Source: Escherichia phage vB_EcoM_DE15
Sequence record: NC_079184.1
Length of the DNA stretch: 53,998 nt
Reading direction: 5' to 3' (one strand)
Shown here: positions 7,827-53,998 of the stretch, in pieces
Layout of the letters: the number at the start of each line of letters is the position of its first letter
Numbering within the stretch: the stretch's first letter is position 1
Made by a program: the position numbers and the translations under genes
Notes under the pieces: model-generated
What the model was told of the DNA's origin: nothing
The model's input: only the letters and a program-made list of their open reading frames with translations
The model's database searches: none

Positions 7827-7848
7827 ACATTAGTTGAATGTGAATAAC
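7827..7848 (+). promoter_or_regulatory. Phage promoter-like motif ACATTAGTTGAATGTGAATAAC
   Basis: Motif family member 18 nt upstream of next gene. Confidence 0.45.
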
Positions 7849-8342: not shown

Positions 8343-8363
8343 CAATTAGTTGGATTTGAAGAG
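8343..8363 (+). promoter_or_regulatory. Phage promoter-like motif CAATTAGTTGGATTTGAAGAG
   Basis: Motif family member. Confidence 0.45.
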
Positions 8364-9829: not shown

Positions 9830-9881
9830 TTAACAGAGGTCATTCCACTTCGAGTGGCCTCGATTAATTATCGGAGGAATT

Positions 9882-10227: not shown

Positions 10228-10578
10228 GTGAAAACTTTATACATTGCACTAACAATCTTATTCGGAGTATTCGCATTCAAATCGGAAGCGTCTGTTCGTA
10301 ACTTCCAATGTGGCGGATACAAAATGTCCGTTGAAACAATTACAATGAACCAGCCACTCATTGCAACAATTTCTTTGCACGAAGGTACTTGGATTGAGAT
10401 TCCAGATAACGGAAATCCTAACCCAATGTCCACAGTGTTCTATAACACACAGAGCAGTAAGCTGGCTTTAGTTGGTGTTGACGCTGAGGAACGTTTAGTG
10501 CTACAGATTTATCGTGACATTGACTTCTTTCATGCCAAATTTCCACTGTTATCCACATATTGTAAGGAAGTTAAATGA
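10228..10578 (+). CDS. Putative secreted protein with N-terminal signal peptide (GTG start)
   Basis: MKTLYIALTILFGVFAFKSEA signal-like N-terminus; ORF track starts it at TTG 10111. Confidence 0.35.
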   Translation: MKTLYIALTILFGVFAFKSEASVRNFQCGGYKMSVETITMNQPLIATISLHEGTWIEIPDNGNPNPMSTVFYNTQSSKLALVGVDAEERLVLQIYRDIDFFHAKFPLLSTYCKEVK

Positions 10579-10808
10579 CGTCATCCGAATTTACCATTGA
10601 TGGAGTACCGTACTTACTTGAATCCAGTTGCGAATATCGTCACTGGTCAGTAATTCGCGACCGAGTAGTCAAATTCTTGGAGCGAGTAGGGAAAGATGCA
10701 GCTATTCTGACTACAGCCACAGTAGAAGGGACAACCGAAATCAATCGGGAGCTTGTATCTTTTAAATTAACCATCAACCCAACAGGGAATCCATTCCGTG
10801 AAAGTTGA
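10575..10808 (+). CDS. Hypothetical protein (77 aa)
   Basis: ORF. Confidence 0.4.
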   Translation: MTSSEFTIDGVPYLLESSCEYRHWSVIRDRVVKFLERVGKDAAILTTATVEGTTEINRELVSFKLTINPTGNPFRES

Positions 10809-11067
10809 AGAACTGGCTGACCAACTTAAGGCAGCAAAACGAGAGTCTGCAAATCAATCAGAACGCGTTGCAAAACTGAAAGGGCAAGGCTCAACGTCTG
10901 AAGAAATCCAGTTATTTACAGATAATGTCTGGTTTTCAATGAATCGTGCACAATTTATCGAGATTCAGGAAGAACGTCTTACTGAACTGGAGAAGCGTGT
11001 AGAAACACTTGAGAGCTTGCTTGTAACACTGCAAGAAACTCTGGACCAGGAACTGAAAAATGTCTAA
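10798..11067 (+). CDS. Hypothetical coiled-coil protein (89 aa, GTG start)
   Basis: ORF. Confidence 0.4.
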   Translation: MKVEELADQLKAAKRESANQSERVAKLKGQGSTSEEIQLFTDNVWFSMNRAQFIEIQEERLTELEKRVETLESLLVTLQETLDQELKNV

Positions 11068-11476
11068 CGTTAAGCTGGGCCAACGCTCCCTTGACCGACT
11101 CAAGGGTGTAAATCCTTCATTGGTGGCAGTTTTCAAGCGTGCATGTGAAACAATGCCGTTTGATGTAACTGTTCTTGAAGGATTGCGTACTTATGAGCGT
11201 CAACAAGAGCTTTTAAAGCAAGGTGCAACCAAAGTTTCAGTTAGCCGACACATGTCAGGCAACGCCTTAGACCTTGCACCATATCCGATTGACTGGAATG
11301 ACCTCGAACGATTTAAAGTTCTAGCTCATCACATGTTCAAAGCTGCAAAAGAGCTTGGAATTACCATTCGTTGGGGTGGAAACTGGAGCCGTATTGATGA
11401 AAATCAGCCGTATCCACCACTTGCACCAGGTAAGAAGAAGCTGATTGATATGCCGCACTTCGAACTTCCAGCATAA
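11060..11476 (+). CDS. Peptidase M15 family (L-alanyl-D-glutamate / D-Ala-D-Ala peptidase-like) peptidoglycan hydrolase
   Basis: SRHMSGNALDL (SxHxxGxAxD) and DMPHFE zinc-ligand motifs. Confidence 0.7.
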   Translation: MSNVKLGQRSLDRLKGVNPSLVAVFKRACETMPFDVTVLEGLRTYERQQELLKQGATKVSVSRHMSGNALDLAPYPIDWNDLERFKVLAHHMFKAAKELGITIRWGGNWSRIDENQPYPPLAPGKKKLIDMPHFELPA

Positions 11477-12042: not shown

Positions 12043-12274
12043 TTTAAATATTGCTGAACTTGAGGCTGGATTGATTGTTCACCACCAGCCTCGAAACACT
12101 TTCTATCGTATTCTTGGGCCTACAAAGATTAAAACTCACTGCGGAAGTTGGGTGGATGGGTTTGCTTACCAAGAAGTGAAGAAGTACGGGGACCATACTT
12201 TCTTAAGTATTGATTCCTCTACTATCTACACACGACCGAAAGAGCTATTTGACTCAGACTGGAAAACACTATAG
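12035..12274 (+). CDS. Hypothetical protein (79 aa)
   Basis: ORF. Confidence 0.4.
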   Translation: MRDLNIAELEAGLIVHHQPRNTFYRILGPTKIKTHCGSWVDGFAYQEVKKYGDHTFLSIDSSTIYTRPKELFDSDWKTL

Positions 12275-12343
12275 TTCCAGGCGGGTTTCTTCGAAGTGCC
12301 AAGCGGGTTTTGTACTCGCATTGGCCTTCGGCTTTAGTCTGAA

Positions 12344-12364
12344 ACATTAGTGGGATTTGATTCT
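12344..12364 (+). promoter_or_regulatory. Phage promoter-like motif (first of three in tandem)
   Basis: ACATTAGTGGGATTTGATTC. Confidence 0.4.
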
Positions 12365-12494
12365 GACCACTTAGGGAAGAAAGGCATTATACACTTATCG
12401 CCAAATGGGTGTCAAGCACTTTCTTCATTTATTTTAATTTATTCTTATTATTCTTTTTGTTTGGAATATTGGAATAATTCTGAAACATTAATTG

Positions 12495-12516
12495 GAATTG
12501 AATTAGTGTAATTCTG
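12495..12516 (+). promoter_or_regulatory. Phage promoter-like motif (second of three)
   Basis: ACATTAATTGGAATTGAATTAG, preceded by a 70-nt AT-rich tract. Confidence 0.4.
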
Positions 12517-12621
12517 TCTGTACTCTTTTCCACTAGCAATTGTAGAGGAAGTCCACTGCAATAAGCGCAGCCTCAAACAACCAAGTCTGGACAACTTGGG
12601 AAGAGAGTACAGCACAAAATC

Positions 12622-12642
12622 ACATTAGTTTGAATTGAAACA
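12622..12642 (+). promoter_or_regulatory. Phage promoter-like motif (third of three)
   Basis: ACATTAGTTTGAATTGAAAC. Confidence 0.4.
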
Positions 12643-16377: not shown

Positions 16378-16614
16378 ATGCAACAGCTTAAGTCAATCTT
16401 TCTTGGCGTCTTGACTGCATTGGGTATTCTCCTTGCAGTGTTCCTCAAAGGCAAAAGCTCAGGCAAAGCCGAGGAGCGCCAGGAAGCCAAAGAGAAGCAA
16501 TTCGATTCCATTAAAGAATCTATCGAGATTAAAACGCATGTTCAGAAAGAAGTGTCTAGCAGTTCTGATAGCAATGTCGATAGTGAGTTGCTCTCAAAGT
16601 GGGTTCGTAAGTGA
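16378..16614 (+). CDS. Small membrane protein, i-spanin-like (N-terminal TM helix plus charged coiled-coil)
   Basis: AAGGTGA RBS; MQQLKSIFLGVLTALGILLAVFLKG then K/E-rich region. Confidence 0.35.
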   Translation: MQQLKSIFLGVLTALGILLAVFLKGKSSGKAEERQEAKEKQFDSIKESIEIKTHVQKEVSSSSDSNVDSELLSKWVRK

Positions 16615-16738
16615 TTACTGCATGATTGCACAACCAATCTATTTGGATGTTGCAGAAGTGAAAGTTTTATCACGCGAAACCAAAACACAGATTTTAGTCC
16701 ACAATGAAACGTGGGCACAAAAGTGTTCGAAACGATGA
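16538..16738 (+). CDS. Lipoprotein in alternate frame overlapping the previous gene, o-spanin-like
   Basis: MFRKKCLAVLIAMSIVSC: signal peptide with lipobox-like IVSC. Confidence 0.3.
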   Translation: MFRKKCLAVLIAMSIVSCSQSGFVSDYCMIAQPIYLDVAEVKVLSRETKTQILVHNETWAQKCSKR

Positions 16739-17181
16739 AATTATCAAAGCAGTATATTTACGACAGAGTTTCTAAGCGTCAGGAACCTACTTGGCAAGTA
16801 GACACAGATGGGTATTTATCTGCTTCGATTACTTTGCCAGAAGGCACTTTCAACGTAAGAAAACACATCTTGGTGTTCTACAAAACAAACGGATACATTC
16901 CAGATTTTGTGGACCATAAAGACAACAACAAATTAAACAATGCTCCAGACAACTTGCGAGAAGCAAGCAAGTGCCAGAATCAACAGAACTCCAAACGACC
17001 AAAGAATAACTCTTCTGGCGTTAAGGGTGTGTCACTAACCAAACACGGTAAATGGCAAGTTCGTATTATGGCAAATGGTGTGAAGCATTACGGTGGATTG
17101 TTTGACTCTCTCGAAGATGCCAAACAACACATAGAATCATTACGATTGAAATTACATAGTGATTTTGCTCGTAGTGTGTAG
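16735..17181 (+). CDS. HNH homing endonuclease with AP2-like DNA-binding domain
   Basis: DHKDNNKLNNAPDNLREASKCQNQQN (HNH) and GVKGVSLTKHGKWQVRIMANGVKHYGGLF (AP2-like). Confidence 0.65.
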   Translation: MKLSKQYIYDRVSKRQEPTWQVDTDGYLSASITLPEGTFNVRKHILVFYKTNGYIPDFVDHKDNNKLNNAPDNLREASKCQNQQNSKRPKNNSSGVKGVSLTKHGKWQVRIMANGVKHYGGLFDSLEDAKQHIESLRLKLHSDFARSV

Positions 17182-39162: not shown

Positions 39163-39338
39163 TATCCCTGTTCCCCGACATAAAATATTTTCTGCATCGT
39201 CCTATAATCGAAGATAGTTCTCTCTGCAAGTTACGTGAATTGCAAGATGGAACCTATTCGATTATGGACTTATTGCTATTCCACGACATTCTCGATTTGC
39301 GTAAGAAACTCGAACCAGTAGATGAAGACAATGGCTAA
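39060..39338 (+). CDS. -1 frameshift extension of tail assembly chaperone (GT-like product)
   Basis: -1 frame opens exactly at the slippery heptamer (stop TGA 39057-39059) and runs 92 codons to 39338. Confidence 0.5.
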   Translation, partial: FFQARARNQRTETIGGGGSIQAGRAEEFESGDSLVSLFPDIKYFLHRPIIEDSSLCKLRELQDGTYSIMDLLLFHDILDLRKKLEPVDEDNG

Positions 39339-42300
39339 TCAAAAAGATTTAATGAAGTTGAGCGTTAATGAGTTAATTGCATTAGGCTCTCAAAGCGGTC
39401 TGACTTTCCATGCTGGTATGAAGAAGTCGCACATGGTTCAACAACTTAGTGCGAGCGCTGCTTCGGGATGGCTGGATACAAATGCAGAATTAATGGGTGG
39501 GTCGTTCGAAGATGACAGTTTGATTACTGAATCTTTGGGTGACTCTTCCATGATTTCAGACGCTGCCCACATTGCACAAGTGCTTTCAAGTGCTGGCTAC
39601 ACAGAAGCATTTCATGCAGCAATGAATGGCCCATCACACCATGTAGAAGCTGTTCACGCATACATGGAAAGGCTTGGCGTTAGCACAGATGATGTGTGGA
39701 TGCACATGCCAAAGCCAAATCCGAACCTACCGCAAGGTAGCTTCAACATGCTTAATGCCTATATGCGAGATACTTTGCAAGGGCATCAAGATATTATGCC
39801 GGAAATCCCAGGCCATTATGCTGGGGATATTATGGCTGAATACTCCACCAACCGTGGAAACATTGCTGACTCCTACAACTACATGGCCCACATGTATGTT
39901 GACCGTGAGCAATATAGCAATCATGAACAATACGCAAGAGACATTAGTCGAGTTGCCAAACGTCTGGAACGAGAGTTACCCTCAGCCTTTAAGGAAGTTG
40001 GGTATACATCCGCATCTAATGTAGGAAATAAATCGGCCCCACATATTTCTTACATGGATGCACTCCCTCAGATTGGTTCTCCTTCGATTGTTTCTGGCAT
40101 TGCACATCCTCGTGCACCTCTTAACGCATCTGGACTTCCTCTTGGTTCTTATGGTTCTGGCATAAATCCAGAATACTCCCTCACTGCCTCGCTAACTGGT
40201 GGCACTGGTTGGAGTGAACCAAGCAAGGCTTTATATTCCTCTATTAGCGAAGCTGTTAAATCTGCTGCCAAAGTTTATTCTGGTTCCAAAGGGATGATGA
40301 ATACTCGTCACGAAGTATCTGACCGTGACATGATTATGGACAGTGCAACTCGCTACACAGATTTGGAAGAAGCCAGAAGCGGATACGAAAACCTTCGTTC
40401 TGAACTTGCAGATGAACCAGCTTATTCTGCATCAAGTGTTCGAGCTATTCTCGAAAACACTTACGATAGAATGGATGCCGAACCTGTTCGCATTCCAAAG
40501 ATGAAGGGAGCTTCACAGCGAGTCGATAAAGATTCACTGTCAACATCTACAGATTTTACAGCACAACTTGGAGAGGCCACCAATTGGAACTCTGCAAGAA
40601 TGCGTCGTGAGGAACTTGCGATTGCAAATATGGATAGTGCTGGATTCCGTGATGTATCAGACTATGGTACAGGACGTTCCGAGTCCCCCGTCCGATTCCA
40701 TGACTTAGAACAGGGCAGCCAAGAGTGGCTGGACTTCCGTAAAAATTATGACATAACTGGCTCAACTGTTGGAACTTTCTTAGGAAACAACCCATACACC
40801 CGACCTTGGGCTGGTATGATTGATAAGATTGGCTTATCTCGTAGTAAAGAGCACAGCGATTTCACCAAAAAGATGTTCGCTGATGGTCACAGGACGGAAG
40901 AAGAAGCACGCGCTCGTGTTGGTAAGGAATTTGGATTCGATATCAAACAAATTGGCGCTATAACAAATGACAACTATCCCGCCTTCATGTATTCTCCTGA
41001 TGGTCTTATTGGGGATGATGCCATTTGGGAGCACAAGAATCCGCAAAGGGCTGGTAAGTTTGCTGACCTTCTTAAAGGCGACCATCCAGACTACATGGAC
41101 CAAATTCAATTTGGTATGCACGTTTCTGGCCGTTCTCGTGCTTTGTTCTCACAAACCATCAACGACGAAACACGTTCGCAGTGGATTGAGAAGGACGAAG
41201 GATGGTACGAAAGAAACCGAAATCGCCTTGATTCTGTGCTTGGCCGTCTTGATGCTGGGCGAGAGTTTGTTAGAAACAATGCTGGATTAGAACGAGAAGA
41301 GCTGATTGCTGGTGCAAGAAGTGCAATGACTGGTGATGGAATCTGGAAAGATATTCGTCAAAGGTCTACTCGTGGCTATTCTGCTGCTGCTGGTACTCCA
41401 GAAGACCCGTTTATTGGTTCACGTTCTTCGTACAATCCAGAAGCATCCTACTCTGACTACAAGCCAAACTTTGTAATGCACGAGCAAAACTTTCCGGCAA
41501 CTACTGGAAATGGTGACACCGGAAATGACTCGATGGCATTGTCTGTTAAGAAAGGTATTCTTGCTGCTCAGGAAGAAAACAGGCAGAAAGGTATTGGTGC
41601 AGATGCAGACTTTGATGGCAAAGCCGATTCAATGGGCTGGAACCGTGAAAGATTTGATGCTGCCAATGGCGGTGGATATTCTGGCGGTGGTGGTGGTCGT
41701 GGCGGCAACTTCACAAGTGGTGGCAACTACTATGATGACTACGGTCGCATGGGTGGTTCGTTAGCTGCTGGCATTGCTGGTGGCAGTATTGGTTCAGCAA
41801 CCAACGGAGTTATGCAAGCATTGATGGCAACTCCTGCTGGACGTATGGCTGCTGTAGGCATTGGTGCTATTCAGATTGGCAATGAAGCTGCTGAATACAT
41901 GAATGACTTTATCGGCAACTCGCTTGATGCTGGTGTGATAAATCCTAATGAATATTCTTCCATGTCGCAAGGCTTGGAGATGTTAGGACTCAACTCACAA
42001 CAAGCGGCACGTCTGAATCAAACCACACATAGTGCCTATAACACCATGCTTAACGGCGACCCCAGCGCCGCTGTGAACATCGTTCGCGGCAGTAGGGGAT
42101 TGCTCACCATAGGTGATATTCGTGCGACAGGCGGCGACCCTGTGGCCCTGGCTCGCATCATGCAGGAAAGGGGCAAGGAGCGTGGCTGGAGTCAGGCCCG
42201 TATCGCAGGTGCTGCCGAAATGGCTGGCCTACAGGGTATGGCGCGAGCATACGACCGCACGGAATACAGCCATGAGCAAGCTGGCTCGGTGGTAGAAGCG

Positions 42301-43047
42301 GGTAGAAACTCCGACTTTGCCGAAGGTATGGCCCAATCGGAAATGTTGCAGGGAAGCCGCGCACGGATGCTGCCGAGCTACAACGTGCCACAAAGTGTCC
42401 TATCTAATGGCGCTTCTGTATTTGAGGCTGGCAGTGATGCACTTGACAGTGTACGCACTGGATTCAACAGGACACGAGAGTTTGCTGGAAGTGTTTACGA
42501 CTTTATTGCTCAGGAAGAATCTGGCGGTCGTGAATACAACAAAGATGGTTCTCGTGTAACAAGTCCAACTGGCGCTCGTGGGATAATGCAGATTCTCCCT
42601 TCGACTGCCCGTGACCCAGGATTTGGAATCAGGCCGTCTGATGGAACTCCAGAAGATGATGCACGAGTTGGTCGTGAATACTATGACGCAATGTACAAGC
42701 GTTATGGCGACCACGAGAAAGCAATGGCTGCTTACACCGATGGTCCTGGCACTGTTGACAAAGCTGTTGATAAGAATGGGTTGGATTGGCTTACTGCTGT
42801 TCCTGCACAGGCACAGAATCGCGTCAAAGCATTCCGTGAATGGTCCAAGTCTTCTCAATCTTTGGAAGAAGGTGCTACAGGGTTTACTCGTAATGGAATG
42901 TCATACGGTCAAACCCAAACTGTTGTTAATGTTAAGATTGATGCTAAGGTCAACAACCAGACTGCTTCTGCTACAGTTGCAATTCCTGGTGGTCAGACTG
43001 TGACTCAACAAATGAACATGAACAACGGTGCGCAACAAAGACGTTAA
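39322..43047 (+). CDS. Tape measure protein (1241 aa) with internal YqaJ-like PD-(D/E)xK nuclease domain and C-terminal lytic transglycosylase (SLT) domain
   Basis: QGSQEWLDFRKNYDITGSTVGTFLG and YSPDGLIGDDAIWEHKNP (YqaJ-like); EESGGREY...GARGIMQILPSTA (SLT); Gly-rich hydrophobic stretch. Confidence 0.65.
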   Translation: MKTMANQKDLMKLSVNELIALGSQSGLTFHAGMKKSHMVQQLSASAASGWLDTNAELMGGSFEDDSLITESLGDSSMISDAAHIAQVLSSAGYTEAFHAAMNGPSHHVEAVHAYMERLGVSTDDVWMHMPKPNPNLPQGSFNMLNAYMRDTLQGHQDIMPEIPGHYAGDIMAEYSTNRGNIADSYNYMAHMYVDREQYSNHEQYARDISRVAKRLERELPSAFKEVGYTSASNVGNKSAPHISYMDALPQIGSPSIVSGIAHPRAPLNASGLPLGSYGSGINPEYSLTASLTGGTGWSEPSKALYSSISEAVKSAAKVYSGSKGMMNTRHEVSDRDMIMDSATRYTDLEEARSGYENLRSELADEPAYSASSVRAILENTYDRMDAEPVRIPKMKGASQRVDKDSLSTSTDFTAQLGEATNWNSARMRREELAIANMDSAGFRDVSDYGTGRSESPVRFHDLEQGSQEWLDFRKNYDITGSTVGTFLGNNPYTRPWAGMIDKIGLSRSKEHSDFTKKMFADGHRTEEEARARVGKEFGFDIKQIGAITNDNYPAFMYSPDGLIGDDAIWEHKNPQRAGKFADLLKGDHPDYMDQIQFGMHVSGRSRALFSQTINDETRSQWIEKDEGWYERNRNRLDSVLGRLDAGREFVRNNAGLEREELIAGARSAMTGDGIWKDIRQRSTRGYSAAAGTPEDPFIGSRSSYNPEASYSDYKPNFVMHEQNFPATTGNGDTGNDSMALSVKKGILAAQEENRQKGIGADADFDGKADSMGWNRERFDAANGGGYSGGGGGRGGNFTSGGNYYDDYGRMGGSLAAGIAGGSIGSATNGVMQALMATPAGRMAAVGIGAIQIGNEAAEYMNDFIGNSLDAGVINPNEYSSMSQGLEMLGLNSQQAARLNQTTHSAYNTMLNGDPSAAVNIVRGSRGLLTIGDIRATGGDPVALARIMQERGKERGWSQARIAGAAEMAGLQGMARAYDRTEYSHEQAGSVVEAGRNSDFAEGMAQSEMLQGSRARMLPSYNVPQSVLSNGASVFEAGSDALDSVRTGFNRTREFAGSVYDFIAQEESGGREYNKDGSRVTSPTGARGIMQILPSTARDPGFGIRPSDGTPEDDARVGREYYDAMYKRYGDHEKAMAAYTDGPGTVDKAVDKNGLDWLTAVPAQAQNRVKAFREWSKSSQSLEEGATGFTRNGMSYGQTQTVVNVKIDAKVNNQTASATVAIPGGQTVTQQMNMNNGAQQRR

Positions 43048-43078: not shown

Positions 43079-43099
43079 ACATTAGTTGAATATGTATTA
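43079..43099 (+). promoter_or_regulatory. Phage promoter-like motif ACATTAGTTGAATATGTATT upstream of baseplate genes
   Basis: Motif family member. Confidence 0.45.
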
Positions 43100-51984: not shown

Positions 51985-52326
51985 ATGGAACGATTATCCA
52001 TTCAGATGTTTCTGGACCTCATGCACCAATATGGCGTATGGCACGGCTTGCTCGCTGGTCTGACGGCTTTAATCCGTGGGGCATATGAGAGTGAGGGTTT
52101 AAGCAAGGCGTTGCTAGATGCGACGCTGTGCAGCTTAATCGGCCTGTTTGCATTTCAGGTCGCTGGCACATTTGAGACTTTCACGACTAACGTCACTATG
52201 CAGTTAGTTTTGGCTATCGTGATTGGTGTCATCGGTGCTAACCTCATTATCACAACTGTCAGAGAAAGTTTCTCTGGCGCAATCAAACAACTTAATCCTT
52301 TGACGTGGTTCAAGAAGGCACGATGA
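51985..52326 (+). CDS. Holin (putative, 3 TM segments)
   Basis: Three hydrophobic stretches in 113 aa; directly upstream of lysin. Confidence 0.5.
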   Translation: MERLSIQMFLDLMHQYGVWHGLLAGLTALIRGAYESEGLSKALLDATLCSLIGLFAFQVAGTFETFTTNVTMQLVLAIVIGVIGANLIITTVRESFSGAIKQLNPLTWFKKAR

Positions 52327-52343
52327 AATGATAAGGAACTCGG

Positions 52344-52898
52344 ATGCTATCATTCAAAGTTCTTGCACTTCTGACAGCTTTAGTTCACATCAACGCCCCA
52401 GCTTCGGTTGGGGCAGTGAATTCTGCTATTACAGATTTTGCAAGTCATTCCTATTTAAATGGAAGTCTGAAATTATCTTCTTCACAACGCAAAGAGCTAG
52501 AATGCTACACTAAAGTAATCTGGTACGAAGCTCGCGGAGAAGACAAACATGGAAAGATTCTGGTAGCTAATGTCGTCCGTAATAGAACAGAGTTCGGGAA
52601 GCCATTCGCTAACACCGTTTGTAATGTTGTCTATCAACGCAATCAATTTGCATGGACACGAGAAGCAAAGAAGAAGAATGCTCAATGGAAGCATGTAGCA
52701 AAGATTAATTATGCCACAGAACAACAACAAGTTCTGGACACCATTAATGTTGCAATCTCTTTTGTACTATTTAATCAACCCTCTGTCACCAAAGCAACTC
52801 ACTTTTGTACAGCATCGGAGAAGTGCAACTTCAAGAATGTCAAAGGTCTGGGACGTTATGGTGGCCATAAATTCTATGAGTATCTAGGAAATCTGTAA
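52344..52898 (+). CDS. SleB-type cell wall hydrolase with N-terminal signal/SAR-like segment (endolysin candidate)
   Basis: [21 protein letters not shown] matches the SleB/Hydrolase_2 core; N-terminal [25 protein letters not shown]. Confidence 0.65.
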
Positions 52899-53998
52899 TG
52901 GCTTACACTACCTTTTCACAAACCAAGAATAACCAACTATTAGAACCAATGTTCTTTGGTCAGAACGTTAACGTTGCTCGATATGACCAACAGAAGTACA
53001 GCGTCTTCGAGAAGTTAATCGAGAAGCAGTTATCTTTCTTTTGGCGACCTGAAGAGGTTGATGTTAGCCAGGACCGAATTGACTATGCTGGTCTGCCTGA
53101 ATGCGAGAAGCACATCTTTACCAGCAATTTACGATACCAAATCCTGCTTGATTCCATTCAGGGACGTGGACCAACCACAGTTTTGCTGCCAATTGTGAGC
53201 ATTCCTGAACTGGAAACTTGGATTGAAACTTGGTCTTTCTCAGAGACAATTCACTCCCGTTCTTACACGCATATTATTCGTAATATCGTGACAGACCCAA
53301 GTGTAATTTTCGATGAAATTGTGGAGAATGAGCACATTAAAATGCGTGCAATCGGCATCTCCCAATATTATGACGAGCTTCAACATCTAACTTCCATGTG
53401 GCATCTGCATGAAGATAAAGTTTCCCTTCGTGAGCTTAAGAAGAAGCTGTATTTATGCCTCATGTCCATCAATGCACTAGAAGCAATCCGCTTTTATGTC
53501 AGCTTTGCTTGCTCATTTGCCTTCGCTGAACGCAAGTTGATGGAAGGAAATGCCAAGATTATTCGCTTAATTGCTCGTGATGAAGCACTCCATTTGACCG
53601 GAACTCAACACATGCTGAACCTTCTTGCAAGTGGTGTTGATGACCCAGAAATGGCAGAAATTGCTAAAGAATGCCGTCAAGAATGCCAACTCATGTTCGA
53701 AAATGTGGCCCAACAAGAGAAAGATTGGGCTGATTATTTGTTCAAAGATGGCTCAATGATTGGCTTAAATAAGCAAATTCTGTGCGGATATGTGGAATAT
53801 ATCACGAATATTCGTATGCAAGCAGTTGGATTGGATGCTCCATTCAAAGGTGCTACTAACCCGATTCCTTGGATTAACGCATGGTTGAATTCGGATGCTG
53901 TACAGGTTGCTCCACAAGAAACGGAGATTAGTTCGTACCTTGTCGGGCAGATTGATTCCGAAGTTGACACCAATGCTCTGGGCGGATTTGAGCTTTAA
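52898..53998 (+). CDS. nrdB: Class Ia ribonucleotide reductase beta subunit (NrdB), host-like
   Basis: [11 protein letters not shown]...[18 protein letters not shown]...[18 protein letters not shown] strongly resembles enterobacterial NrdB as recalled. Confidence 0.85.

Follow-up and report, generated by a model that had tools for sequence, protein, structure and literature searches.

The genome of Escherichia phage vB_EcoM_DE15 (NC_079184.1), a stretch of 53,998 nucleotides that was analysed as a whole and is called the window here, carries at 11060-11476 on the + strand a gene for a 138-residue protein of the M15C L-alanyl-D-glutamate peptidase type, and at 52344-52898 (+), beside a holin gene, a second gene for a cell-wall hydrolase of the SleB (Hydrolase_2) type. 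The 5 kb around the M15 gene are 92-96% identical to Escherichia phages vB_EcoM_SA91KD, ST32, JL1, Bp7 and EcoM1, which belong to the genus Carltongylesvirus of the family Chaseviridae, and the window is a near-complete Carltongylesvirus genome of the ST32/SA91KD/phiEcoM-GJ1 group, in effect the whole phage. Its long open reading frames (ORFs) are all on the + strand and follow the order of SA91KD: a single-subunit RNA polymerase, small early genes, the single-stranded DNA-binding protein (SSB), an antirestriction gene and replication genes, then genes for packaging, head, tail and tail fibres, the holin, the hydrolase and NrdB. The lysis genes are scattered over three loci, at 11 kb, 16.4 kb and 52 kb.

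The M15 gene begins with an ATG codon, with a Shine-Dalgarno-like AGGAA (11048-11052, +) positioned 7 nucleotides upstream, and its start overlaps the preceding ORF (10798-11067) by 8 nucleotides. An equivalent Shine-Dalgarno sequence is listed for the M15 gene of ST32 (Table 2 of PMC6266442). The translated ORF matches Pfam Peptidase_M15_4 with 34.9 bits (cut-off 25) and PHROG 465 'endolysin' with an E value of 1.3e-54, and its relatives in the PDB are solved L-alanyl-D-glutamate peptidases, with 23ri/8q2g at about 1e-23, EndoT5 of phage T5 (2mxz/8p3a) at 5.5e-20 and Serratia ChiX at 3e-17. When the window protein was aligned with those of phiEcoM-GJ1 (GJ1), the T5-like phage DT57C, the Slopekvirus phT4A (RB49-like) and Aeromonas phage pAh6-C (gp30), residues R43, S62, H64, D71, D130 and H133 proved invariant. 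The zinc triad of LAS enzymes is thus present as H64 and D71 (H-x6-D) and H133, together with the catalytic D130 three residues before the last His. A preliminary description of this DNA had credited it with an M15 peptidase that has intact zinc motifs and lies among early and middle genes, and both statements hold: H64, D71 and H133 are conserved, and the gene is located between the SSB and ArdA-like antirestriction genes, upstream of the replication genes. The Trp of a 'GGNW' motif (W109) is common to the window, T5-like and Slopekvirus enzymes in the alignment, and this residue is critical in EndoT5 (W114) and EndoRB49 (W109); the family alignment in the same study contains the GJ1 and ST32 orthologues (PMC10487532). 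A Kyte-Doolittle scan of the M15 protein found no hydrophobic segment, signal sequence or transmembrane domain (TMD). On these features the ORF is predicted to encode an intact, working M15C L-alanyl-D-glutamate endopeptidase of the T5/RB49 type. With neither TMD nor signal, such an enzyme would depend on a hole-forming holin, and since it has no export signal it could not reach the wall before the holin fires. The ORF also has a sub-threshold Pfam match to His_biosynth, which is echoed in the GenBank record of phage SKA49, where the M15 gene is called 'imidazoleglycerol phosphate synthase'.

At the nucleotide level the M15 locus is mosaic. Relative to GJ1, identity is about 88% over the first ~290 nucleotides of the gene, and the final ~130 (the 3' third) have diverged, in agreement with a recombination breakpoint reported at residues 81/82 of the M15 protein in a study of SKA49 (PMC10282059). 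The ORF immediately upstream (10798-11067) is unrelated to its GJ1 counterpart at the nucleotide level, and SA91KD has an additional 92-residue gene between M15 and ArdA that the window does not have. The M15 gene (11.06 kb) does not form a cassette with the holin gene (51.99 kb), an arrangement that is typical of canonical endolysins but not obligatory. T7 gene 3.5 and T4 gene e are likewise encoded apart from their own holins, and by this analogy the middle-region location would be no argument against an endolysin role for the M15 peptidase.

The second enzyme, of 184 residues, matches Pfam Hydrolase_2 with 57.3 bits (cut-off 27) and PHROG 938, which is classed as endolysin, at 5e-20. Glu62, in the motif YEARGE, is invariant in the SleB-type alignment and aligns with the Glu of YGESRGE in Bacillus SleB (4F55), which we take to be the catalytic Glu of that protein. 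A catalytic glutamate has been described as essential for SleB activity, in a paper in which the residue is not numbered (PMC12331253). The first 24 residues form a signal or signal-anchor-release (SAR) sequence, with a charged start, a hydrophobic core of 9-10 residues and a small-residue site (A/V)-P-A↓S, where ↓ marks the predicted cleavage site and is followed by SVGA. A signal-like N-terminus is shared by the homologues of phages 4HA13 and PM1, with the site (A/V)PA↓SVG conserved, and by those of Proteus phage Myduc (GASVHA↓E), pAh6-C (KAMA↓SK) and T5-like DT57C (T5.083; SSQA↓SH). Of the SleB-type ORFs sampled from IMG/VR phage contigs, 70 could be scored, and all but three of these (67) show a strongly hydrophobic stretch before the catalytic motif; some of these N-termini resemble lipoprotein signals (for example at loci L048 and L089) and others long membrane anchors followed by coiled-coil-like linkers (for example L035 and L049).

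The nature of the N-terminus can be read in two ways. An uncharged stretch from K5 to D31 that is rich in Ala, Ser and Gly fits a SAR anchor. A cleaved signal peptide is suggested by the n-h-c layout and the conserved (A/V)PA↓S site, and by the clearly short signals of the Myduc, pAh6-C and T5.083 homologues, in which charged residues directly follow the predicted cleavage site. Annotators have been similarly divided: the proteins of phages Mangalitsa and 4HA13 are called 'SAR endolysin', that of Myduc 'not SAR'. Under both readings export is predicted to be independent of the holin. The hydrolases had both been described as soluble, and this needs qualifying: the window does encode two free enzymes, but the SleB-type protein carries an export signal and is not soluble in the cytoplasmic sense.

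As had been noted before, the SleB-type gene stands beside the holin gene (51985-52326, +), and the two adjoin one another in every Cleopatravirinae genome examined. The holin is a class I protein of the lambda S family, with 113 residues, and matches Phage_holin_3_1 (PF05106) with 33.5 bits (cut-off 23.8) and PHROG 126 at 7e-18. It has two strong hydrophobic segments and one weaker segment at residues 16-30. A BLASTP comparison with lambda S gave 27% identity over 73 residues (E = 7e-8), and the alignment spans TMD1-TMD3 including a conserved Cys. The homologues in Mangalitsa, 4HA13 and Myduc were annotated 'holin class I' by phage-lysis specialists. The window protein begins MERLSIQMFLDLMHQYG and its Myduc homologue MDRQFWQSVFSTMHQFG. 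A conserved internal Met before 'HQ(Y/F)G' could serve as a second start, giving a holin/antiholin pair like S107/S105 of lambda. The window holin differs from lambda S in having no Met-Lys-Met dual start; M8 and M13 are possible alternative starts.

The distribution of the two enzymes was followed through related genomes. With stringent thresholds (and a match over at least 80% of its length for M15), the M15 and SleB-type proteins were each found in 79 phage records, in equal numbers for the main host genera: 36 and 36 for Escherichia, 22 and 22 for Erwinia, 8 and 8 for Yersinia, 2 and 2 for Pantoea. In every such pair of genomes compared, M15 is more conserved than its SleB-type partner, with identities for M15 and SleB-type proteins of 78% and 67% in 4HA13, 77% and 66% in phage Faunus, and 68% and 41-44% in Y2-like Erwinia phages. 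The M15 gene is absent from the Pectobacterium phages PM1 and PP101, in which the holin, SleB-type enzyme, spanins, ArdA and flanking small genes are all retained. The M15 slot, between a phrog_24715 homologue and ArdA, is occupied by a CHAP-domain protein of the TIGR02594 type (PM1_012; Pfam CHAP 28.7 bits, PHROG 1259), the relatives of which adjoin holins or spanins in other phages. Myduc encodes a Peptidase_M15_3 (M15A) protein (105 bits) in its early region, and a class I holin with a signal-bearing SleB-type enzyme at its right end. In pAh6-C, from the other subfamily, the M15-like gp30 (PHROG 1768, 6e-12; 24.4 bits in Pfam, just below the cut-off; H-x6-D and D-x2-H present) is encoded directly upstream of the SleB-type gp31 (41 bits), after the tail-fibre genes. 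In T5-like DT57C the M15 gene abuts a T-type holin gene and the signal-bearing SleB homologue is 14 kb away. The combination of a signal-less peptidase with an exported SleB-type enzyme was therefore present in all four Chaseviridae lineages examined and in DT57C. The replacement of one family by another argues that the slot is probably selected for a soluble wall hydrolase, that is, for wall cleavage itself rather than for the M15 fold.

Transcription of the two genes was approached through a promoter core motif derived from the phage-promoter sequences annotated in SA91KD. The core, CATTAGTTGGATGTGA, has 11 matches with at most three mismatches in the window, all on the + strand (0.63 expected), at 569, 2695, 3672, 7828, 8344, 12345, 12486, 12623, 14582, 28290 and 43080. 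The copy at 7828-7843 (+), CATTAGTTGAATGTGA, is a motif for the phage RNA polymerase and heads the SSB-to-ArdA unit that includes the M15 gene; a second copy for this unit lies at 8344-8359 (+), and homologous promoter sites are annotated in SA91KD and GJ1. Between these promoters and the M15 gene there is a terminator-like hairpin (9836-9861, +), and SA91KD has a terminator annotated at the equivalent site. The unit ends in a stable hairpin (12274-12345, +; -29.7 kcal/mol, z -3.8), immediately ahead of the promoter cluster at 12345, 12486 and 12623; the three copies of this cluster fall within 12345-12638, in a stretch without long ORFs. The last motif (43080-43095, +) heads the baseplate and tail-fibre operon that ends in the holin, the SleB-type enzyme and NrdB, in which the holin and SleB-type genes are separated from their respective upstream neighbours by 8 and 17 nucleotides. 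Scans of the window for sigma-70 promoters and intrinsic terminators gave fewer matches than shuffled sequence and are thus uninformative on their own.

The remaining lysis genes are a spanin pair. The i-spanin (16378-16614, +) has 78 residues with an N-terminal TMD at residues 3-27 (PHROG 1026, 7.6e-19), and the o-spanin (16538-16738, +) has 66 residues with the lipobox IVSC (PHROG 1275, 5.2e-18). The o-spanin gene overlaps the i-spanin gene in a different frame, both PHROGs are labelled 'Rz-like spanin', and a lipobox scan of the window returned the o-spanin as its one convincing candidate. The pair is found among middle genes, beside an HNH endonuclease ORF (16711-17181) and distant from both hydrolases and the holin.

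A third muralytic activity had been attributed to the tape measure protein (39322-43047, +; 1241 residues), and we agree: its SLT domain, at residues 1061-1152, is predicted to be a virion-borne muralytic activity. Pfam gave no other muralytic domains in nine baseplate and tail-fibre proteins. The tape measure protein also contains a YqaJ-like (viral recombinase/exonuclease) domain at residues 468-604 (E = 2e-13); the same pair of SLT and YqaJ-like domains occurs in the tape measure protein of PM1, and in SA91KD the protein is labelled 'tail fiber'.

The two-hydrolase arrangement has already been published for close relatives, and the window adds one more genome to the genus. For ST32, ORF24 (M15) and ORF78 (SleB-type) are both listed as 'endolysin' and ORF77 as 'holin' (Table 2 of PMC6266442), and the SKA49 study discusses 'Two distinct types of endolysins' (ORF22 and ORF71; PMC10282059). 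T5-like Salmonella phages have the same duality of M15 and SleB, with the M15 gene beside the holin, and which enzyme is primary has been posed as a question (PMC11180984). The paper on ST32 holds no virion proteomics and that on phage Tiny no lysis-gene data. A Pantoea phage PA1 paper, which concerns an unrelated lysozyme-type endolysin, and an Endozoicomonas preprint, which does not deal with Chaseviridae, were put aside.

With a confidence that is only a little above even, we favour a model in which the M15 peptidase is one half of a two-enzyme lysis system with its genes spread over three loci and both enzymes co-operating. Translated from middle transcripts, the peptidase would build up in the cytoplasm without doing harm. 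As infection ends, large holes would be opened in the inner membrane by the class I holin, a product of the late tail operon, and through them the peptidase would reach the sacculus and cut its stem peptides. The SleB-type transglycosylase would share a transcript with the holin, leave the cytoplasm by the Sec route and, already in or at the periplasm, cut the glycan strands upon membrane depolarisation. Opening of the outer membrane would fall to the spanins as the next step, whereas the SLT domain of the tape measure would serve entry. A cytoplasmic endolysin is harmless if made early or in the middle period and an exported one must be made late, and the layout of the genome therefore makes sense. 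Either enzyme could still be the true endolysin, as the preliminary description had put it, but the comparative pattern fits joint use in lysis.

Several points count against this model. Holins of the lambda S family can serve exported endolysins too, and the holin type is no proof that the M15 peptidase is released through it. The timing of M15 expression is inferred from promoter motifs only, and expression from the sites at 7828 and 8344 (P7828/P8344) would need read-through of the 9836-9861 hairpin. When 80 IMG/VR loci with a SleB-type gene were searched over 6 kb flanks with a query panel of M15C, M15A and CHAP proteins, a peptidase gene was adjacent to the SleB-type gene in one (L071, M15_3 beside Hydrolase_2), and such adjacency is no general rule. 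Experiments on Chaseviridae lysis genes were not found in the literature searched. An exported endolysin and a holin would, moreover, suffice for lysis. The SleB-type enzyme with its holin might then be the only functional endolysin, and the M15 peptidase dispensable, kept for a conditional or other role in certain hosts, temperatures or growth states; we think this unlikely. In its favour is the constant pairing of the SleB-type and holin genes, which are probably co-transcribed in every Cleopatravirinae genome examined, and it agrees with the usage of authors of related genomes, who in the PP101 paper describe a 'holin-SAR endolysin' lysis module common to all phages of the group (PMC6989608), and with a report of Hydrolase_2 as the sole endolysin of the Phapecoctavirus SKA64 (PMC10282059). 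It sits poorly with the fact that all lineages examined retain a cytoplasmic peptidase, including those in which another fold has taken over, and with the stronger conservation of M15 relative to its SleB-type partner. In pAh6-C the M15-like gene belongs to the late cluster and adjoins the SleB-type gene, and in T5-like phages the holin-adjacent enzyme is M15, EndoT5 being described as the endolysin that releases phage progeny (PMC10487532).

The T5 arrangement can be pressed further, to make the M15 peptidase the true endolysin here as well and to leave the SleB-type protein some other periplasmic job, such as recycling, or local remodelling of the wall on behalf of the holin or spanins. Bacillus SleB requires a modified substrate, the holin is of a family (lambda S) that forms large holes, and T5-like phages pair M15 with a holin and carry the signal-bearing SleB homologue (T5.083) elsewhere. 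We nevertheless regard this as unlikely too, slightly more so than the preceding reading: the tight holin-SleB gene pair is conserved across the Cleopatravirinae, the Glu at the catalytic position of the SleB-type protein is invariant, and PHROG 938 is an endolysin class. Entry and superinfection roles had been suggested for the second enzyme in the preliminary description, and the position of the SleB-type gene after the tail-fibre genes could be taken in favour of a virion or ejection protein that acts in entry or in lysis from without. Against this, the entry function would already be supplied by the SLT domain of the tape measure protein, the M15 peptidase is encoded among non-structural genes, and the proteins listed for purified 4HA13 particles (15 with a coverage of at least 50%), which include the tape measure protein and even SSB, contain no endolysin or peptidase, although this last argument is a weak one. 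On the SLT domain and the particle proteomics we set the virion role aside as very improbable for either enzyme. We give even less credence to the M15 peptidase as an analogue of T7 lysozyme that would chiefly bind and regulate the single-subunit RNA polymerase of the phage and cleave the wall as a secondary task. The gene does stand where T7 has gene 3.5, in a T7-like series that runs from RNA polymerase through SSB, lysin, primase/helicase and DNA polymerase to exonuclease. Its product, however, has the LAS/M15 fold and matches only M15/LAS families, not the amidase_2 fold of T7 lysozyme, and the same family provides a plain endolysin in T5 and RB49 (PMC10487532). Exchange of the peptidase fold between lineages argues against such fold-specific moonlighting, since a polymerase contact that depends on the fold would not survive the swap, and it is the unrelated CHAP/TIGR02594 protein in the PM1 and PP101 slot that led us to discard the idea.

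ST32, SKA49 and Mangalitsa have the same gene pair at the same positions, with proteins 97-99% identical and no substantive difference. The M15 peptidase resembles EndoT5 and the RB49 and RB43 enzymes (M15C) in being a single domain of 138 residues (137 in those enzymes) without a signal sequence, and its zinc ligands, catalytic Asp and conserved Trp align with those of EndoT5 and EndoRB49. It is 38-42% identical to the T5-like and RB49-like enzymes, and its loop from W109 to D130 differs from the Ca-binding loop of the T5 enzyme. The T5-like lys gene abuts a T-type holin gene, whereas the window M15 gene is far from its holin. In gene layout there is also a likeness to T7, where genes 1, 2.5, 3.5, 4, 5 and 6 follow one another, the lysozyme gene 3.5 belongs to class II, gene 17.5 encodes the holin and genes 18.5/18.7 the spanins. 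Both phages have a cytoplasmic wall hydrolase between SSB and primase/helicase, with holin and spanins elsewhere. The window enzyme nevertheless has another fold and cleaves another bond, a second, exported hydrolase is encoded beside the window holin, and we found no evidence that the window enzyme regulates the polymerase in the T7 manner.

The SleB-type enzyme is comparable with the SAR endolysins P1 Lyz and phage 21 R and with the signal-peptide endolysin Lys44 of fOg44, which likewise combine an export sequence with a holin neighbour. It differs from them in its catalytic domain, which is Hydrolase_2 and not a lysozyme, and its N-terminus may be a classical cleavable signal. Bacillus SleB (4F55) has an N-terminal peptidoglycan-binding domain that the window protein is without, and the host wall does not contain the muramic-delta-lactam recognised by SleB. 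The holin shares PF05106 and PHROG 126 with lambda S105.

Two genes upstream of M15, within the SSB-to-ArdA unit, a gene at 10228-10578 (+) encodes a secreted protein of 116 residues with a signal peptide and two cysteines (C28 and C112). A homologue lies at the same place in PM1 (E = 9e-14), no similarity to Myduc_018 was detectable, and the protein has only two close homologues in a large protein database. A model built from the resulting three-sequence alignment (predicted local distance difference test score, pLDDT, 77; predicted template modelling score, pTM, 0.67) is an eight-stranded beta-barrel for which the best structural matches are periplasmic peptidoglycan-hydrolase inhibitors of the PliC/PhiA type. 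Foldseek independently ranks Brucella PliC first, with a non-significant E value (0.025), and many kinds of small barrels score nearly as well. The PliC/PhiA-like fold is a lead, not a result, and membership of this protein in the lysis system is uncertain.

The protein does suggest how an exported hydrolase might be held in check. The SleB-type enzyme may do no damage in the periplasm before the peptidase is let out by the holin, either by being efficient only on glycan strands with cut stem peptides or by being restrained by the putative PliC/PhiA-like protein. On this view two enzymes would carry out lysis as a gated reaction, in place of a single endolysin accompanied by a spare. Alternatively, the PliC/PhiA-like protein could act in superinfection exclusion in the manner of Spackle, blocking the SLT domain of incoming tape measure proteins. 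We regard these proposals, gating or its Spackle-like alternative, as a long shot.

The presence of two hydrolases, as a finding in itself, has little import: the sequence was read correctly, and genomes of this type were already known. Combined with experiment, Chaseviridae and T5-like phages would be well suited to the question of why certain Gram-negative phages retain a cytoplasmic stem-peptide peptidase alongside an exported glycan-cleaving enzyme, and would help to show how the exported hydrolase is kept from premature lysis. Both enzymes are candidate enzybiotics, and members of the M15C group have already been characterised biochemically.

Two further observations concern the records and the right end of the window. 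A genome deposited as 'Staphylococcus phage Pel53' is Carltongylesvirus-like, with M15 and SleB-type proteins 97% identical to those of the window, and its host label looks doubtful; the public records behind our remarks on Pel53 and SKA49 are PP952070.1 and OL741059.1. The SleB-type gene is followed, with a 1-nucleotide overlap, by the gene for NrdB, the small subunit of ribonucleotide reductase (52898-53998, +; Pfam E = 2e-48), which extends to the end of the window. None of the listed ORFs of at least 100 residues looked like a large-subunit reductase gene, for which no dedicated search was made. A homologue of NrdB is also present in pAh6-C.

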